From: Candidatus Parcubacteria bacterium
Lineage (GTDB): Bacteria > Patescibacteriota > Minisyncoccia > Phycocordibacterales > CAYZPE01
NCBI GenBank assembly: GCA_046050145.1
Contig: JBJOQC010000040.1
Span: forward strand, 1-45,162
DNA: 45,162 nucleotides
Direction: 5' to 3'
The translations under genes were made by a program, and so were the position numbers. The notes beneath the pieces were generated by a model. That model was not told the DNA's origin, did no database searches, and saw only the letters and a list, made by a program, of their open reading frames with translations. Positions 4,747 to 24,808 of this stretch are shown one piece after another (the stretch's first letter is position 1; each line of letters opens with the position of its first letter).

Positions 4747-5544
4747 TTATTGCTTCTTCAAAGTAACCCAGCGAATGTTCTGTATATTTACTGGCACTTC
4801 AGCAAGAACATTTTGAAATGCATCTGTAGGGCGTGAATCTATCACTCGTGCCCGAGCAGTAACAAAACCTGTAGCTCCGGCTGTTACAAAAATATCTCCC
4901 TCAACAACAGAAGCCTCTCGAGGAACAACTATTTCGAAATCCCCTCCTCCTCTACCAACAAGATCTACCTGTACACCTGTACGTGAAATAAATGCAACGG
5001 TCTGTCTTTCTGGTGTTGAATAAAGCTCTACTTTTGATTGACTATCATACACATCTACCACAGTACCCAAAGCAACAACACCGTCTGCAAAAACCACATC
5101 CCCCACCCTCACACCTTCAGCCAAACCAATATCGATAATAATATTGTCATATGCAATACGTGGAGGGTGAGCAATAACTCCAGCAAGAATAGATCCTTCA
5201 TCAGCACTTCCCCCAAGAGAAGACTTAAGTTCGGTGTATTCGTCATATAAAGCCTGGTAGGCAATTTCTTTTACAGTGGTCTGGGCAAGCAATTCTTTGA
5301 GAGCTTTATTTTCAAGAATGAGAGCTTCTTTTGAAGAGAAGAAACCTGTATTGAGAGAAGCTTCCGCATCTACCGCATTTCCAAAATTCCAAGCTTCCGA
5401 AAAAAGTTTAAACACAGCACTCGAAAAAAAAGTAGGTATAAAAAAAGAAATAAGCAATAAGACACCCACAAGAGCGCCTGCTTTTGAGATTTTTCTAAAA
5501 AAAACCCCACGGCCATGATTCCTACTTTTCAAGACGTAATTCAT
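4747..5544 (-). CDS. mreC: Rod shape-determining protein MreC
   Basis: N-terminal TM helix, a coiled-coil stretch (KALKELLAQ...) and a beta-rich C-domain. It lies immediately after mreB. I prefer the ATG at 5544 to the TTG at 5556. It overlaps the mreB 3' end. Confidence 0.8.
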   Translation of the reverse strand: MNYVLKSRNHGRGVFFRKISKAGALVGVLLLISFFIPTFFSSAVFKLFSEAWNFGNAVDAEASLNTGFFSSKEALILENKALKELLAQTTVKEIAYQALYDEYTELKSSLGGSADEGSILAGVIAHPPRIAYDNIIIDIGLAEGVRVGDVVFADGVVALGTVVDVYDSQSKVELYSTPERQTVAFISRTGVQVDLVGRGGGDFEIVVPREASVVEGDIFVTAGATGFVTARARVIDSRPTDAFQNVLAEVPVNIQNIRWVTLKKQ

Positions 5545-6595
5545 CTTCGTGAGCAATTAACACATCTTTATATTTTTCCATATCTTCAAGTATGATCCCC
5601 GTACCACGAGCCACAGCACCTAACGGATCTTGCGAAATATATACAGGAATTTTTATAAACTCTTCAAGAAGTGGCGCAAGTCCTTTTATGAGAGCACCTC
5701 CACCTGTGAGATAAATTCCTCTATGCATAATATCAGACAAAATCTCTGGAGGAGTTGTTTCAAGCACTTCACGAGCAGATTCAATAAGAGTATCTATTGA
5801 ATGTGAAATAGCTTCACGAATATCAGCATCTGTAATCACCACTTCTCGAGGAAGTCCCGTGATAAGATCTCGTCCTTTTATTGTTGCTTCAAGAGGCTGT
5901 TCCTCAGGCATGACAGACCCAATAGCAATTTTTATATTTTCTGAAGTTTTTTCTCCAATTAAAATTTTGAACTCATTACGAATATAGGAAATAATGTCAT
6001 TGTTCAGTCTATCTCCAGCAATCTTAATATTTTTTGATCGAACTACTCCACCCAAAGAGATAACCGCAATATCAGTGGTTCCTCCGCCAATATCAATAAT
6101 CATAGAACCAACAGGGTCATGTATCGGAAGTCGTATTCCAATAGCGGCAGCCATTGGTTCCTCTACAATATGCACCTCACGCGCCCCCGCATTACGAGTA
6201 GCATCTCGTACCGCACGAATTTCAACGTTAGTAATTCCTGAAGGAACACCCACCACCACACGTGGTCCCAAAAACTTCTTTGATTCTTTTTGAGCTTTAT
6301 TTAAAAGATATGAAATCATTTCTTCTGTTACTTCGAAATCTGAAATCACACCATCCACAATTGGACGAACAGGAACGATATGCTGAGGTGTACGTCCAAG
6401 CATTGCTTTCGCCTGACTCCCCACCGCAACCACCTGACCTGTCTTTTGATTTACAGCAACAACAGAAGGTTCGTTTATCACGATCCCCTTGCCTCGAACA
6501 TATACAAGCGTATTGGCAGTTCCTAAATCAATTCCGATATCATTTGAGAGCCACGCAAAAAGCTTTTGTTTCCATGTAATAATTTTATCTTTCAT
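5522..6595 (-). CDS. mreB: Rod shape-determining actin homolog MreB
   Basis: 357 aa. The actin-fold phosphate motifs are present: DIGIDLGTANTLVY and IIDIGGGTTDIAVISLGG. Confidence 0.93.
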   Translation of the reverse strand: MKDKIITWKQKLFAWLSNDIGIDLGTANTLVYVRGKGIVINEPSVVAVNQKTGQVVAVGSQAKAMLGRTPQHIVPVRPIVDGVISDFEVTEEMISYLLNKAQKESKKFLGPRVVVGVPSGITNVEIRAVRDATRNAGAREVHIVEEPMAAAIGIRLPIHDPVGSMIIDIGGGTTDIAVISLGGVVRSKNIKIAGDRLNNDIISYIRNEFKILIGEKTSENIKIAIGSVMPEEQPLEATIKGRDLITGLPREVVITDADIREAISHSIDTLIESAREVLETTPPEILSDIMHRGIYLTGGGALIKGLAPLLEEFIKIPVYISQDPLGAVARGTGIILEDMEKYKDVLIAHEDELRLEK

Positions 6596-10211: not shown

Positions 10212-10763
10212 TTACCCCATTATCTCTTTATCCTTCTTTTCGAAGAGGGTTTCCAAGTTTTTATTTGCCTCATCAACAATCTTTTGAGTCTCAGCCTTGA
10301 AACGAAACTTTTCATCTTCACTCATTCCACCTTCTTTCTCTTTTTTATCAATATCAGAGATTACCTTATCTCGCTCAAGACGAACTGATTTGCGAGCCTC
10401 TTCAAGTTTTGCTTTTGCAACCTTAACCAAGTCAGCTCGTCGCTCTGTTGTAAGCTCAGGAAAAATAACTCGAAGACCCTTATCGTCAACAGTTACTGAA
10501 AGACCCAAATTTGATGTTGTGATCGCCTTTTCAACAGCTTTTGCCTGTGACATATCCCATGGAGTAATACGAACTGAACGAGCATCTTCCACAGTCACAC
10601 TTCCTATCTGATTAATAGACATTAGAGATCCATATGATTCAACTTTTACAATATCCAAAACAGCAGGACTTGCCTTTCCTGTTCGAAGACTGCCAAACTC
10701 TCTCTTGAGCCACTCTTCTACTTCTTTTATTTGTGTTTTAAAGGATGTGAAATTGTATACCAT
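10212..10763 (-). CDS. frr: Ribosome recycling factor
   Basis: 183 aa. Typical RRF sequence (LRTGKASPAVLD..., ITPWD, NLGL...DDKGLRV.FPELTTERR). Confidence 0.92.
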   Translation of the reverse strand: MVYNFTSFKTQIKEVEEWLKREFGSLRTGKASPAVLDIVKVESYGSLMSINQIGSVTVEDARSVRITPWDMSQAKAVEKAITTSNLGLSVTVDDKGLRVIFPELTTERRADLVKVAKAKLEEARKSVRLERDKVISDIDKKEKEGGMSEDEKFRFKAETQKIVDEANKNLETLFEKKDKEIMG

Positions 10764-10842: not shown

Positions 10843-10870
10843 TTGACAATATTTTTATATATGCTAATAT
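10843..10870 (+). promoter_or_regulatory. Near-consensus promoter TTGACA-N16-TAATAT with TGC extended -10
   Basis: TTGACA at 10843-10848 and TGCTAATAT at 10862-10870. It points away from both flanking (minus-strand) genes. Confidence 0.6.
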
Positions 10871-10876
10871 TAATAC

Positions 10877-10970
10877 AGATCGAATGTACCTCCTATCTCA
10901 GGTTGGCCTCCCCCGACCCAACCTGAGAACTCGCCACTGGCACACCCCCGACGGTGCCAGTGGTTTTTTT
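10877..10970 (+). ncRNA. Candidate small RNA (about 90 nt) with C-rich loops and its own promoter and terminator
   Basis: The single-stranded 5' part contains ACCUCCU (10888-10894). Hairpin 1 spans 10896-10928 with loop CCUCCCCCGAC. Hairpin 2 spans 10934-10963 with loop ACCCCCGACG and is followed by T7 (10964-10970). There is no SD-preceded ORF. Confidence 0.5.
10934..10970 (+). terminator. Intrinsic terminator (plus strand only)
   Basis: 10-bp stem CCACTGGCAC/GTGCCAGTGG followed by TTTTTTT. On the minus strand no U-run follows the hairpin. Confidence 0.75.
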
Positions 10971-10977
10971 ATACACA

Positions 10978-11640
10978 CTATTTTGGACAAGTAAGTGCTA
11001 CATGCTCAAGTACAAGTTTTAATGAAGATCCTTGAGAAAATAAAAACTTTTTTAACTCTAAAACTTCACCTAAAAAATGAGAACTTTCTTTTACTAAGCC
11101 TTCCCCTTTAAGATAGCCTTCCAATGAATCTAAGAAAATAATCCCTCTATTTTTATCTTTTAGATCAATAATTTCTTTAATATACAAAATACGTTTAGAG
11201 ATATTAGCTTTTACAAAACTTTGAATTTCTTTTTTATCCACACTCTCTTTTGAAAGGTTCACTATCACCAATCGAGATTTTAGTGTCGGTAAAAGAATAT
11301 CTGCTGTTTTTGTAAGTATAAAAAAGTGAGTCCCTTCTGTTGGCTCTTCAAAAATCTTAAGTAAAGCATTCTGAGCTTCTCGATTTATAAAGTTGCATGA
11401 AATAATAAAAATCTTTTTTCCTGAAAAAGATCGTGCCTGTTGGTTTTCTTTGAGCTTGCGACTCTCCTCTATTGAGAATGTATCATGAGACTGATACCAA
11501 AAATCTGGATTACCAATCGTTTCAATACCTAAACTTTCTTTTAAAAAATCTTTCAATTCAAGTGCCGTGCTGGCATTGTCGCCCTCTATGCAGTACGCAT
11601 GGTGCAGATTATTGATATCTATAAGTTTCTTAAGACTCAT
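10978..11640 (-). CDS. holB: DNA polymerase III delta' subunit-like clamp-loader protein
   Basis: 220 aa. HHAYCIEG replaces a P-loop. The NALLKIFEEP and LPTLKSR motifs are typical of delta'/tau-family AAA+ proteins. Confidence 0.75.
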   Translation of the reverse strand: MSLKKLIDINNLHHAYCIEGDNASTALELKDFLKESLGIETIGNPDFWYQSHDTFSIEESRKLKENQQARSFSGKKIFIISCNFINREAQNALLKIFEEPTEGTHFFILTKTADILLPTLKSRLVIVNLSKESVDKKEIQSFVKANISKRILYIKEIIDLKDKNRGIIFLDSLEGYLKGEGLVKESSHFLGEVLELKKFLFSQGSSLKLVLEHVALTCPK

Positions 11641-12386: not shown

Positions 12387-13400
12387 CTACCTCTTTGAAA
12401 TAACTGATTTTTTATATGTATCCAAATGTTCGAGTGCAATACCAGTCCCCTTCACTACACAATAAAAAGGATCCTTTGCGAGCTGAGCTTTCACACCTGT
12501 ACGACGGAGCACGAGCTCAGGAAGATTTCTAAGCTGTGAAGTTCCCCCTGTCATGATTATTCCTCGATCAATAATGTCAGATGCGAGCTCTGGTGGAGTT
12601 TCTTGAAGTACATCCTTAATAGCTTTTATCATTTCACGAAGTTCTTTTGTAATAGCTTTTACAACCTCATTTGTTTTGAGTTCAATTGAGCGAGGAAGTC
12701 CAGTCACAAAATCTCTCCCTTTTACAATCATAGAAAGTTCGTCTTCAATAGGGATCGCTGAACCTATTTTCATTTTTATATCCTCAGATGTTTTATCGCC
12801 AATCGCTAAGTTAAATGTTTTTTTAATATAGTCAGCAATTGCATAATCAATTTTATTCCCCGCAACCTTTACTGATTTTGAAGACACTATTCCTCCAAGC
12901 GAAATCACAGCAACATCAGTGGTTCCTCCCCCAATATCAACCACCATATGTCCTGCCGCTTCTTGAATAGGAATACCCGCACCAATTGCCGCGAGAATTG
13001 GCTCCTTCACCACATATGCATTTCGCGCCCCTGCTTTTATGGCAGCTTCTATCACCGCACGACGCTCAGTAGATGTAATACCAGCGGGTACCGAAACCAA
13101 TACATCAGGCTTCCAAAAACTCCATTTACCAAGAGCTTTTTCCATAAAATACCGGAGCATTGCTTCTGTCACCCGATAGTCTGCAATCACCCCATCTTTC
13201 ATTGGACGATACGCAATAATATGTTCGGGAGTGCGTCCAATCATTTGTTTTGCTTCAACACCAATTGCCAAAATTTTATTGTCCTCCTCAGACACAGCTA
13301 CAACAGAAGGCTCACAGAGAACCACACCTTTTCCAGGAACAAATACAAGTGTATTTGCAGTACCCAAATCAATACCAAGCTTTTTAGAAAACCATGCCAT
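12387..13400 (-). CDS. mreB: Second MreB-family actin homolog
   Basis: 337 aa. LGIDLGTANTLVF and VVDIGGGTTDVAVISLGG are present. It is a stand-alone gene away from mreCD. Confidence 0.9.
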   Translation of the reverse strand: MAWFSKKLGIDLGTANTLVFVPGKGVVLCEPSVVAVSEEDNKILAIGVEAKQMIGRTPEHIIAYRPMKDGVIADYRVTEAMLRYFMEKALGKWSFWKPDVLVSVPAGITSTERRAVIEAAIKAGARNAYVVKEPILAAIGAGIPIQEAAGHMVVDIGGGTTDVAVISLGGIVSSKSVKVAGNKIDYAIADYIKKTFNLAIGDKTSEDIKMKIGSAIPIEDELSMIVKGRDFVTGLPRSIELKTNEVVKAITKELREMIKAIKDVLQETPPELASDIIDRGIIMTGGTSQLRNLPELVLRRTGVKAQLAKDPFYCVVKGTGIALEHLDTYKKSVISKR

Positions 13401-21389: not shown

Positions 21390-21698
21390 CTCCGGTGGTA
21401 GGACTCGAACCTACAACCCCCTCGTTACATCAACCCTTCTATTTCTAAAAGGAATGGACTATATCATCATCCCGAAGGATGTGAGGCGCTTCCCCTAAAT
21501 CATTTTTGAATGATCGGGTACTCCTCGCGGATAGTCTCTGAACCTTCTCTTACTTAAAAGTGAGAGCTTGGCTGCTGATTGCCCTTTCCAAAAATTGGAT
21601 GAGGGTTTCCAGTCAATTCACCTCATTTTTCAACTCAAATTACTTTGAGAAGCTGCAACAACTTACAGCGAGACGCTCTACCATTGAGCTACACCGGA
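21390..21698 (-). tRNA. tRNA-Asn(GUU) interrupted by a group I intron (exons 21698-21665 and 21427-21390)
   Basis: Spliced sequence, arm by arm: UCCGGUG-UA-GCUC-AAUGGUA-GAGC-G-UCUCG-CUGUUAA-CGAGG-GGGUU-GUAGG-UUCGAGU-CCUAC-CACCGGA-G. It forms a full cloverleaf with U1-A72 and G73 as in bacterial tRNA-Asn. No CCA is encoded. Confidence 0.88.
21428..21664 (-). ncRNA. Group I intron, 237 nt, no ORF
   Basis: In P1 the exon GCUGU pairs with intron GCAGC, giving U.G at the 5' splice site, and the intron ends in G. The core elements are P AAUUUUUGGAAAGGGC (21596-21581), Q AAUCAGCAGCCAAGC (21580-21566), R GGUUCAGAGACUA (21544-21532) and S AUGAUAUAGUCC (21467-21456). GACUA/UAGUC forms P7. Confidence 0.9.
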
Positions 21699-23002: not shown

Positions 23003-23033
23003 ACCACCCCGCACCGGCAGGGTGGTTTTTTGT
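23003..23033 (+). terminator. Intrinsic terminator
   Basis: ACCACCC...GGGTGGT stem followed by T6. Confidence 0.7.
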
Positions 23034-24415: not shown

Positions 24416-24444
24416 TTGACAATTAGTTTATAGTTTGCTATACT
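24416..24444 (+). promoter_or_regulatory. Near-consensus promoter TTGACA-N17-TATACT with TGC extended -10 (csp)
   Basis: TTGACA at 24416-24421 and TGCTATACT at 24436-24444. The resulting leader is about 95 nt. Confidence 0.6.
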
Positions 24445-24545: not shown

Positions 24546-24746
24546 GTGAATACAGGAACAATTAAGTCAAAGAAAGAAAAAGGTTTTGGTTTCATCGCTC
24601 GCGAAGGAGAATCAAAGGATCTTTTCTTTCATGCAAATGAAGTTGTTGGTACTACGTTTGATGCTCTTCGCGAAGGCGATGCAGTAGAATTCGAAGTTGC
24701 CGAGAACGAAAAAGGACTTTACGCTACGAAAGTTTCAAAGGCGTAA
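24546..24746 (+). CDS. cspA: Cold-shock domain protein (CspA family), GTG start
   Basis: KGFGFI (RNP1) and LFFHA (RNP2-like). 66 aa, with a long leader typical of csp genes. Confidence 0.88.
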   Translation: MNTGTIKSKKEKGFGFIAREGESKDLFFHANEVVGTTFDALREGDAVEFEVAENEKGLYATKVSKA

Positions 24747-24758
24747 TCTCTCTTTGTA

Positions 24759-24788
24759 GAACACCCCCAGACGGGGGTGTTTTATTTT
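24759..24788 (+). terminator. Intrinsic terminator
   Basis: ACACCCCC-AGAC-GGGGGTGT followed by a T-rich tract. Confidence 0.8.
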
Positions 24789-24808
24789 GTGATATTGTAC
24801 ATATTGGT

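Follow-up and report, generated by a model that had tools for sequence, protein, structure and literature searches.

The locus examined here raises the question of what is encoded by a stretch of DNA that has its own promoter and its own terminator, both on the plus strand, and that is attached to no open reading frame (ORF). This unit occupies positions 10843–10970 of a 45,162-nucleotide window, a term used here for the whole stretch of DNA that was analyzed, which comes from an uncultivated, ultra-small bacterium of the Candidate Phyla Radiation (CPR). It lies between two minus-strand housekeeping genes, frr and holB, the latter of which converges on it. A preliminary description had pointed to a promoter, an ACCUCCU motif, two hairpins with C-rich loops, and a tract of seven T residues at this site. 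Each of these elements is present on the plus strand at the positions claimed for it, and the unit can be divided into the following features.

10843–10848, plus strand: −35 hexamer TTGACA of the sRNA promoter, located by sequence and by consensus scan.
10862–10870, plus strand: extended −10 element TGcTAATAT, with TG at 10862–10863 and TAATAT at 10865–10870; the spacer to the −35 hexamer is 16 nt.
10877–10895, plus strand: predicted transcript start (∼10877, from promoter geometry) and unpaired 5′ leader, which is single-stranded in the MFE fold.
10888–10894, plus strand: ACCUCCU motif within the 5′ leader, read from the sequence.
10896–10928, plus strand: hairpin 1, with an 11-bp stem (arms 10896–10906 and 10918–10928) and the 11-nt loop CCUCCCCCGAC (10907–10917), from fold and covariation.
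10929–10933, plus strand: linker ACUCG (family consensus ACUC(U)G), kept in the window, in L001, in L007, and in all four Phycisphaeraceae copies.
10934–10963, plus strand: hairpin 2, with a 10-bp G+C-rich stem (arms 10934–10943 and 10954–10963) and the 10-nt loop ACCCCCGACG (10944–10953), from fold and covariation; it also serves as the terminator stem.
10964–10970, plus strand: T7 tract directly 3′ of hairpin 2, the 3′ end of the predicted intrinsic terminator.

The promoter matches the consensus at 10 of 12 positions and carries the TG extension. To call it the best promoter in the window, as had been done, is an overstatement, since it ranks only joint eighth to ninth among 54 candidates and is outscored by several gene-associated promoters. 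Among the strong promoters ranked in the window, it is the only one for which no gene to serve was found. The neighboring frr would be served by a separate, divergent promoter-like site (10814–10787). A promoter at 24416 was considered as a second orphan and was rejected because it serves a cspA-like gene. Promoter-like sites are common in the AT-rich DNA of this region, where 15 were found in 4 kb against 8.8 expected.

Transcription from this putative sigma-70-type promoter would run from ∼10877 to 10970, where hairpin 2 and the T7 tract form the unit's own predicted intrinsic terminator. When the window was scanned for perfectly paired stems of 7 bp or more with six or more T residues directly behind them, seven sites emerged, of which this terminator is one. 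It is absent from the standard terminator scan because its 10-nt loop exceeds the 3- to 8-nt limit of that scan. On the minus strand, the hairpins run into CGAGUUCUC or AUAGGAGG, neither of which provides a U-run, and the predicted terminator is therefore specific to the plus strand, as originally proposed.

The MFE fold of a 96-nt plus-strand RNA consists of exactly the two hairpins listed above (−38.4 kcal/mol; z = −6.56), and none of 200 shuffled sequences is as stable. Both loops carry the same 8-mer, CCCCCGAC, which occurs nowhere else on either strand of the 45 kb. Its chance expectation is 0.21, and one of 100 shuffles gives two matches. Loop 1 has CCUCCCCC (seven C residues, five of them contiguous), whereas the number of contiguous cytosines in loop 2 is five in the window copy and six to seven in L001 and the Phycisphaeraceae copies. 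There is one copy of the unit per locus, and no repeat family was detected. We conclude that the unit is a predicted stand-alone non-coding sRNA gene on the plus strand, whose transcript would have two hairpins and a length of ∼94 nt.

The position of the unit suggests one simple possibility, which is that it acts locally. The holB stop codon is located at 10978–10980, and no minus-strand terminator was found 3′ of holB in the window. In a close relative that lacks the unit (L072–74, frr 81% identical), the gap between holB and frr is just 35 nt, and the two genes are probably co-transcribed there. Convergent transcription from the strong promoter, or the antisense RNA that results, could uncouple holB from frr in this CPR genome, either through transcriptional interference or because the RNA pairs with holB transcripts that read through, and the RNA had indeed been proposed to be antisense to a holB–frr co-transcript. 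However, the sRNA stops short of the holB coding sequence, and local action leaves the sequence conservation of the loops unexplained. Antisense pairing also cannot explain the family as a whole, because the Phycisphaeraceae copies described below lie on the pilM strand with no annotated gene opposite. We consider a local role to be improbable, and at most a side effect of gene position.

The unit is found at the same frr/holB position in four further lineages of a narrow Patescibacteria (Paceibacterota-like) clade, represented by L001, L007, L075 (unit B), and L079/80/81. A perfect TTGACA hexamer and a plus-strand terminator are kept in each of them, and the earlier proposal that a non-coding RNA has its own promoter and terminator on the plus strand is supported. 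The −10 elements of these relatives are TGCTAGGAT (L001), TGCTAATAT (L007), TAGGTT (L075B), and TATACT (L079). In all five CPR lineages, the −10 element fits TAnnnT and the spacer is 16–17 nt, and three of the five carry TGn. No same-strand gene follows the unit in any CPR member, and the window likewise has no plus-strand gene downstream. A descriptor search for promoter, C-rich motifs, and terminator upstream of frr was applied to 71 CPR genome-contig loci, of which only L001 and L007 qualified.

The leader CCUCCU is invariant in eight of nine distinct family members; L079 has AGCCCUUCG at this place. A U-run follows the last hairpin in every member, exclusively on the plus-equivalent strand. 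It stands right after hairpin 2 as U7–U8 in all four Phycisphaeraceae copies and in L079–81, and as U5 in L075B. In L001 and L007, this place is taken instead by an extra hairpin with a CCUCC loop, which is followed by a separate terminator, and these two members have four hairpins compared with two in the window, L075B, and the Phycisphaeraceae core. We considered whether the window copy arose by deletion from the longer form seen in L001 and L007. This reading was rejected because L075B and all Phycisphaeraceae copies also end at hairpin 2 and a U-run. Among the members found, two hairpins are the usual state, to which L001 and L007 add an extension. More diverged members keep unpaired CCUCC or C4–5 without the exact loop, as in L075B (CACCCGCCCCGGGC, GCCUCCCC) and L079 (UUACCCC).

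Conservation and covariation of the hairpins had been proposed as a check on the RNA, and this check was made. In a CM alignment of eight members, 94% of the cells are paired, and both partners vary in 12 of the 19 pairs. These values are reached by none of 500 shuffles, and slid controls pair at only 17%–48%. A hand alignment of nine members yields 171 WC pairs, two GU pairs, and one mismatch among 174, with seven different arm sequences per hairpin. In hairpin 1, where seven different 5′ arms occur across the nine members, 85 of 86 hand-aligned pairs are WC or GU, and the loop is identical in six of the nine. Helix 2 is 100% paired, and both sides change in seven of nine modelled pairs. The stems therefore covary, while loops, promoter, and terminator are kept in the relatives.

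These data also bear on the possibility that there is no RNA gene at all, and that a chance promoter lies beside a DNA palindrome or terminator, or that the unit is a tiny protein gene. The abundance of promoter-like sites noted above is compatible with the first version. As for the second, the statement that the transcript has no SD-preceded ORF holds true, although a 36-codon ATG ORF (10884–10994) does span the unit. This ORF lacks an SD, and its start, frame, and length are not kept in L001, L007, L075, L169, or L176; the equivalent reading frame has seven codons in L001, no ATG in L007, and six codons in L176. Moreover, nine distinct sequences, drawn from two phyla, all retain the combination of promoter, spacing, hairpins, and U-run, their stems show compensatory changes, and the single copy per locus does not suggest a repeat element. 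We find the absence of an RNA gene scarcely credible.

The CM built from the family (R1) scores members at 64–104 bits, with L079/80 being weak (E 0.09–1.6). When the window and 86 loci were searched with R1, a space made up of short pieces of each genome and totaling 598 kb, no copies were found beyond the syntenic members. Comparison with Rfam had also been recommended. Neither the whole window nor eight member loci gave an Rfam 15 match at gathering score, and permissive scans (E ≤ 10) of the window unit and of the Phycisphaeraceae copy L176 returned nothing above chance. Literature searches on the loop motif and on sRNAs of Patescibacteria and Planctomycetes turned up no account of this RNA, and we found no paper with its loop motif or on regulatory sRNAs in CPR bacteria or Phycisphaerae. 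As far as its sequences can tell, the RNA family is new in that it falls outside the descriptions in Rfam 15, though it is of a known design.

Several bacterial sRNAs share this design. RoxS/RsaE RNAs bind G-rich SD regions through several unpaired C-rich stretches, and C-rich or anti-SD-like motifs are also known from sX13 and the Betaproteobacteria toxic sRNA. The 6C RNA has a much wider conservation than is usual for an sRNA. [quoted passage not shown] Cuckoo RNAs consist of two to four adjacent hairpins that carry the same anti-SD-like C-rich motif in each loop on variable, compensating stems, and sX13 is listed as carrying a cuckoo-like motif (PMC4615179).

Like 6C (B11/scr3558; RF01066, Actinobacteria), the RNA examined here would be a short, stand-alone sRNA whose conserved parts are two hairpin loops with runs of C residues. 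The 6C family is defined by at least six conserved cytosines in each loop, and with the C counts given above the new family resembles it in architecture without having an identical motif. The loops of the new family carry CCUCC and GAC flanks, an extra CCUCCU is present at the 5′ end, and hairpin 2 doubles as the terminator. The new family occurs in Patescibacteria and Planctomycetota rather than Actinobacteria, and the RF01066 model gives no match to the window copy or to L176 even at E ≤ 10. The cuckoo RNAs (CcsR1–4/RSs0680a and alpha-r14/SmelC397, Alphaproteobacteria) have in common with the new family adjacent hairpins (two in the window, four in L001/L007), covarying stems, and conserved loops. 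Their loop motif is CCUCCUCCC, which occurs in no member of the new family, where the loops are CCUCCCCCGAC and (G)C5–7GACG. In addition, the new family belongs to other phyla, has no DUF1127 gene upstream, and has no Rfam match.

The RsaE/RoxS type (RF01820, Bacillales) had been cited as an example of the kind of RNA seen here. The comparison is reasonable as an analogy, since both have C-rich unpaired regions in loops and single strands as well as their own promoter and terminator. Membership in this or any other Rfam family is not supported. Compared with RsaE/RoxS, motif, length, and taxa differ and the host here uses SD sequences little; neither the window copy nor L176 matches the RF01820 model at gathering score or when hits up to E ≤ 10 are admitted. 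Below threshold, recognizable relatedness in type is confined to two Rfam families, sX13 (RF02232, Xanthomonadaceae) and the Betaproteobacteria toxic sRNA (RF02278). With a 231-nt L176 query, they align over the module at 16.3 and 16.2 bits, compared with a gathering score of 50 (E ∼0.5; 0.46 for sX13), and they are among 17 chance-level matches to this Phycisphaeraceae copy. The sX13 model is not listed for the window copy. This resemblance is a chance-level likeness of hairpins with C-rich loops and not homology.

The family also extends beyond the CPR clade. An 85-nt core that is 74%–83% identical to the window copy is located upstream of pilM in four contigs of Phycisphaeraceae (Planctomycetota), on the same strand as pilM, ∼130–280 nt before its start codon. 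The position of these four copies raises the possibility that the RNA is a cis-acting leader or attenuator of the Phycisphaeraceae type IV pilus operon, in which hairpin 2 and the U-run form a regulated terminator and the CPR copies are displaced remnants. However, a leader-like or riboswitch-like placement, upstream of a gene and on its strand, is found in the Phycisphaeraceae copies only, and the CPR copies keep promoter, structure, and loops, which argues against their being remnants in decay. Expression platforms seldom show the sequence conservation that is seen in this terminator loop, and no riboswitch or leader family in Rfam matches. Between the Phycisphaeraceae terminator and pilM there is a further conserved block, CTAAACC...CGGACGATGA, which may be pilM's own promoter. 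A leader function is, in our view, improbable.

The simplest explanation for a core that is common to an unrelated CPR clade and the Phycisphaeraceae is inter-phylum transfer. That the sRNA gene was transferred horizontally and then retained as a riboregulator is a proposal for which we see about as much reason for belief as for doubt. A far more speculative extension would have the gene move between a Phycisphaeraceae bacterium and CPR cells of the same mat. Since CPR bacteria are thought to be episymbionts, a regulatory RNA of Phycisphaeraceae that is carried by CPR cells could take part in host–symbiont cross-talk, perhaps mimicking the host riboregulator or exploiting its target sites. The pilM linkage in Phycisphaeraceae is the reason why such cross-talk might be placed around type IV pili. 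We regard this full scenario as very improbable, and simple transfer and retention as much likelier.

Searches for additional copies by other routes were negative. MoeB-anchored synteny was not kept and revealed no new copies at further Phycisphaeraceae pilM regions, and plasmid BLAST gave short chance matches only. A metagenome pattern scan matched 82 stretches, of which 77 are chance occurrences without hairpins, mostly in high-GC coding DNA. The sole match of a viral-contig pattern scan, L181, lies inside a phage structural ORF and was rejected by the CM. Across the four Phycisphaeraceae contigs, the 85-nt module hardly varies even in its stems and linker, while PilM identities are 62%–88%. 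Such conservation would be expected of an RNA that is bound by a protein or constrained by its tertiary structure more than of a riboregulator constrained only in its seeds.

How such an RNA might function is suggested by what is conserved. The conserved core begins with an unpaired (A/G)CCUCCU, after which come hairpin 1, which displays CCUCCCCCGAC, then ACUCG, then hairpin 2, which displays (G)C5–7GACG, and finally a U-run. In the CPR copies, the unpaired C-rich motifs are the invariant parts while the stems drift, and for this reason we favor a base-pairing role in trans. This role is further supported by the fact that 6C, RoxS/RsaE, sX13, and cuckoo/CcsR sRNAs work in this manner. The 5′ CCUCCU and the two C-rich loops, three exposed pyrimidine-rich motifs in all, would serve as redundant seeds that form G–C-rich duplexes with single-stranded, G-rich stretches of mRNAs, typically at ribosome-binding regions. 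The target sites envisaged are GGGGG, GGAGG, or GUCGGGGG-like sequences near start codons, where pairing would reduce translation or mRNA stability, probably without a chaperone. By analogy with these precedents, we hold with moderate confidence that the unit encodes a ∼94-nt trans-acting base-pairing sRNA of an uncatalogued family that has moved horizontally between phyla.

The target searches do not single out an mRNA partner. A duplex-energy scan of 48 translation-initiation regions in the window produced no convincing target, and its best energies fall on terminator stems (24761–24790 and ∼23010–23030). Exact G-rich complements of the loops in the window are limited to the antisense of the sRNA gene, terminator stems, and one site in mreB. 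This last site, GGGGGAGG at 12932 in the DIGGGT codons of mreB, could form 10 bp with loop 1. It was rejected as a target because it is absent in L001 and L007 and because the chance expectation is ∼0.25 per window. The pilM initiation regions have only GGGAG in common with the loops, which is unconvincing as a target.

The host genome also makes little use of SD sequences. A 4-mer SD core is located upstream of only nine of 47 window genes, compared with a background of 12%, and AGGAG or GGAGG precedes three of the 47. The suggestion that the RNA sequesters SD sequences, which had been drawn from its exposed C-rich motifs, receives no support here. Because SD motifs are rare in this genome, global SD sequestration by the sRNA is unlikely, and any targets would have to be few or lie outside SD sites.

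A protein would be a different type of partner. The RNA could bind it either as a sponge or as a component of an RNP, by offering its repeated CCCCCGAC loops to an RNA-binding protein that is itself dimeric or repeated, such as one of the KH or S1 type that prefers C-rich single strands, and could in this way titrate the protein or scaffold it. The low use of SD sequences in this CPR genome, the lack of an mRNA target in the sequence searched, and the near invariance of the entire Phycisphaeraceae module are consistent with this explanation, as is the fact that the two loops share an identical 8-mer with GAC rather than mere runs of C. However, no candidate protein gene is common to the frr/holB context in CPR and the pilM context in Phycisphaeraceae. 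Diverged CPR members lose the exact CCCCCGAC and keep generic CCUCC and C-runs, which fits relaxed pairing seeds better, and the precedents with repeated C-rich loops (6C, cuckoo, and sX13) are base-pairing RNAs. We therefore judge protein binding unlikely and retain base pairing in trans as the preferred reading.

CPR and Phycisphaerae lineages are known almost only from metagenomes, and both now have a structurally supported candidate sRNA family. In bacteria, an sRNA seldom reaches beyond a single genus or family. By that standard, an identity of 74%–83% between Patescibacteria and Planctomycetota over the 85-nt module is exceptional, and it would reflect either horizontal transfer of a riboregulator or a partner under strong constraint. 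Several hairpins that show the same C-rich loop are a design seen in 6C, cuckoo, sX13, and RoxS/RsaE RNAs; the new family carries this design into genomes that scarcely use SD sequences, and it thereby provides a test of the SD-occlusion idea. For the Phycisphaeraceae, the constant linkage of the module with pilM offers a testable lead to its function.

A plus-strand promoter-to-terminator unit lies between the minus-strand genes frr and holB; its elements and neighboring genes are listed here.

Features of the frr-holB region and the mreB genes (window positions)
5522-6595 and 12387-13400, minus strand: two MreB paralogues within 7 kb
10212-10763, minus strand: frr, flanking the sRNA unit
10814-10787, minus strand: promoter-like site of frr, TTGAGA-16-TACAAT with TG
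10843-10848, plus strand: -35 element TTGACA, from sequence reading
10862-10870, plus strand: extended -10 element TGcTAATAT, 16-nt spacer from the -35
~10877, plus strand: inferred transcript start; the leader is single-stranded
10888-10894, plus strand: ACCUCCU in the single-stranded part of the 5' leader
10896-10906 and 10918-10928, plus strand: arms of hairpin 1, loop CCUCCCCCGAC
Between hairpins 1 and 2, plus strand: linker ACUCG
10934-10943 and 10954-10963, plus strand: arms of hairpin 2, loop ACCCCCGACG
10964-10970, plus strand: T7, end of the unit
10978-11640, minus strand: holB, DNA polymerase III delta'-like (PF13177), flanking the sRNA unit

This layout of promoter, ACCUCCU, hairpins, C-rich loops, and terminator, as proposed in the preliminary description, is borne out by the sequence. 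The promoter has 10 of 12 consensus matches and the TG element in a consensus scan. Because frr has its own promoter-like site, the two promoters stand back to back and are divergent. The sRNA promoter was called the best in the window, which overstates its rank: it is tied at about eighth to ninth among 54 promoter-like sites. RNAfold returns the same two hairpins (-38.4 kcal/mol, z = -6.56), and none of 200 shuffles is equally stable. The loop motif CCCCCGAC occurs at two sites in the 45-kb window, both in these hairpins (0.21 expected). Hairpin 2 is followed by T7 and the hairpins lack trailing U-runs on the minus strand, so the terminator functions in the plus direction only, as first described. 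The unit was also said to hold no SD-preceded ORF. A 36-codon ORF (10884-10994) does span it, but this ORF is not conserved, with 7 codons in the CPR relative L001, no ATG in the CPR relative L007, and 6 codons in the Phycisphaeraceae contig L176.

The site at 24416 (TTGACA-17-TGcTATACT), among the best promoters of the window, was considered as an equally orphan, higher-scoring promoter and rejected, since it serves a cspA-like cold-shock gene on the plus strand (GTG 24547 to 24745; 5' UTR of ~100 nt; terminator 24761-24790). This gene fell below the ORF filters of at least 90 aa.

The remaining genes of the window (G+C 38%) are housekeeping genes. Near the unit are genes for a LysS/AsnS-type synthetase, GreA, PBP2, MreC, the two MreB paralogues, and RseP, and genes for MurA, PriA, Def, Fmt, HPF, enolase, and others are also nearby. 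The nearest relatives of frr are in Patescibacteria/Paceibacterota MAGs. ARAGORN found no tRNA in the raw window. A 237-nt group I intron (21428-21664; Rfam RF00028, 95.7 bits) sits in the anticodon loop of a tRNA-Asn(GUU) gene (21390-21698, minus strand), separating positions 35 and 36; once it is removed in silico, a clean 73-nt tRNA-Asn(gtt) remains.

GTDB species representatives supplied 71 frr-anchored loci, and among these a homologous unit in the same place and orientation is confined to the nearest two, L001 and L007 (frr 82% and 77% identical to that of the window). Protein-anchored look-ups provided L075 (79%) with a two-hairpin version, termed unit B, L079-81 (73%) with a diverged version, and L072-74 (81%), where the holB-frr gap is just 35 nt and the unit is missing. 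All five CPR variants have a perfect TTGACA, a spacer of 16-17 nt, and a -10 element of the form TAnnnT. The RNA of L001 and L007 is longer, continuing past hairpin 2 into a third hairpin with CCUCC in its loop and then a separate terminator. Unit B of L075 keeps GCCUCCUAAC, with hairpin loop CACCCGCCCCGGGC and terminator hairpin loop GCCUCCCC..., and L079 keeps the hairpin loop UUACCCC, its terminator stem starting with CCCCCACG. Judged from these sequences, what is conserved across the CPR variants is the architecture together with the unpaired C-rich/CCUCC motifs, and the stem sequences drift. Within the 565-nt holB-frr spacer of L075 there is a further promoter-to-terminator unit (L075 2322-2438, minus strand; TTGACA..., ~80 nt, with CCCUCCC just 5' of the terminator), which a long perfect hairpin separates from unit B and which may be a tandem C-rich sRNA gene.

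Metagenome contigs were scanned with the exact pattern CCTCCT-N12-16-CTCCCCCGAC-N9-13-ACTC, derived from the three closest copies. Complementary arms were present in only five of the 82 matching stretches; three of these were the L001 and L007 lineages again, and two were new (L169, G+C 66%, and L094, G+C 57%). L094 encodes MoeB, its closest named relatives are Phycisphaeraceae, and a pilM-pilN-pilO-...-pilB cluster follows its module on the same strand. PilM-anchored look-ups added L176 and L178 (PilM 79% and 62% identical to that of L094), with the module at the same position. A covariance model, R1, built on six copies scores every family member at 64-104 bits, and no further copies were found in the 598 kb of sequence searched with it. 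The window copy is 74%-83% identical to the Phycisphaeraceae modules, but only 60% to the copy of L001 and 48% to that of L007, where an offset in the helix 1 alignment depresses the value; the window and L001 copies are each nearer the Phycisphaeraceae consensus than one another.

All four Phycisphaeraceae loci share a block, CTAAACC-N10-CTATCCGGACGATGAACCAC, between the sRNA terminator and pilM, ~35-140 nt upstream of the start codon (L176 2336-2385; L169 6494-6540; L094 10575-10535, minus strand; L178 2355-2400). This block may be a pilM promoter or operator. That the module is simply the pilM leader would fit the Phycisphaeraceae copies only, and both the conserved terminator loop and this separate block argue against it. 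In L094, a long palindrome of alternating GTTCAAAG and GTTCAAGG repeats, missing from the other Phycisphaeraceae loci, directly follows the terminator (~10590-10690, minus strand).

The stems covary across homologous intergenic regions. In a covariance-model alignment of eight distinct members, 94% of cells are standard pairs and both sides have changed in 12 of 19 pairs; 500 column shuffles never matched these figures, and pairing falls to 17%-48% when the 3' partners are displaced by 1-3 columns. Since an alignment fitted to the model leans toward the structure, a nine-member alignment was made by hand, with a one-column offset of L007 and L075 corrected. Its 174 pairs comprise 171 Watson-Crick pairs, two G-U pairs, and one mismatch, and the arms of each hairpin come in seven sequence variants. 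Five pairs, each fully compensated, separate the window copy from the Phycisphaeraceae copies. The two G-U pairs (L001, L178) versus one A-C mismatch (L007) mildly favor the plus strand, but it is the conserved promoter and U-run that decide the orientation.

We consider it very probable that the unit is a stand-alone gene for a non-coding structured small RNA. The preliminary description identified both the gene and its type of RNA correctly. Membership in a known family did not hold up: neither the window nor eight member loci match Rfam 15 at the gathering score, and permissive scans gave chance-level matches only. The 17 sub-threshold matches of a Phycisphaeraceae copy include sX13 (16.3 bits) and Betaproteobacteria toxic sRNA (16.2 bits; threshold 50 each), both known for C-rich/anti-SD-like motifs. 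No description of this RNA turned up in literature word searches, either for the loop motif or for small RNAs of Patescibacteria or Planctomycetes.

Every conserved element that lies exposed is rich in pyrimidines (5' CCUCCU, loop CCUCCCCCGAC, and loop C5-7GACG), and L001 and L007 add a third exposed CCUCC loop. Cuckoo RNAs are defined by the same C-rich motif in several hairpin loops, with stems drifting by compensation (PMC4615179), a design that the window family shares. Genetic work on 6C sRNA showed chaperone-independent binding of its C-rich loops to G-rich mRNA segments near the RBS (PMC6486639), and the window family likewise exposes C-rich motifs in hairpin loops. By analogy with these RNAs, the sRNA would act in trans as a riboregulator whose C-rich motifs pair with single-stranded G-rich mRNA segments. 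Taken whole, with this mechanism included, the proposal is evenly balanced between right and wrong. Its main rival is that the RNA binds a protein or forms part of an RNP, which is kept in play by the near-invariance of the whole 85-nt module in Phycisphaeraceae (86%-98% identical, although PilM falls to 62% and the 60-80-nt 5' domain shows no conservation there).

As for the targets of trans pairing, SD motifs are nearly absent and the genome of the window organism hardly uses them: a 4-mer SD core at -20 to -4 precedes nine of 47 window genes (background 12%), and AGGAG or GGAGG lies upstream of three of the 47. Where an AGGAG(G) site is clear, the downstream gene is a small hypothetical one (23431, 34684) or a NUDIX gene (22502). 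None of the window's 48 initiation regions offers a convincing target site, and the strongest predicted duplexes involve terminator stems. Exact loop complements in the window occur only opposite the sRNA gene itself, except for GGGGGAGG in the DIGGGT codons of the second MreB gene (12932), the only G-rich complement of loop 1 outside the sRNA gene, which neither L001 nor L007 shares. The scarcity of SD motifs and the lack of a convincing initiation-region site or a conserved exact complement elsewhere count against simple SD sequestration.

The module is found in one narrow CPR clade at a single locus (69 other frr loci of Patescibacteria lack it), and Phycisphaeraceae carry it at a different locus. 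Local antisense or interference effects on holB-frr co-transcription are possible in the CPR clade but cannot account for the family. Convergence is not credible at a cross-phylum identity of 74%-83%, stems included. No third lineage appeared in the metagenome collection by the exact-pattern scan, which needs 20 exact bases and is blind to diverged copies. Horizontal transfer of the RNA gene is the most economical reading, and the direction was probably from Phycisphaeraceae to CPR, because presence in Phycisphaeraceae is deeper and more uniform. Several carriers, on contigs named Ga0163144-Ga0163150, belong to a single sample series, and the source of L094 is a microbial-mat metagenome, so both carrier groups may share a habitat; an interaction between them is speculation. 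The RNA represents a new family of an already known kind of sRNA, one whose spread across two phyla is unusual.
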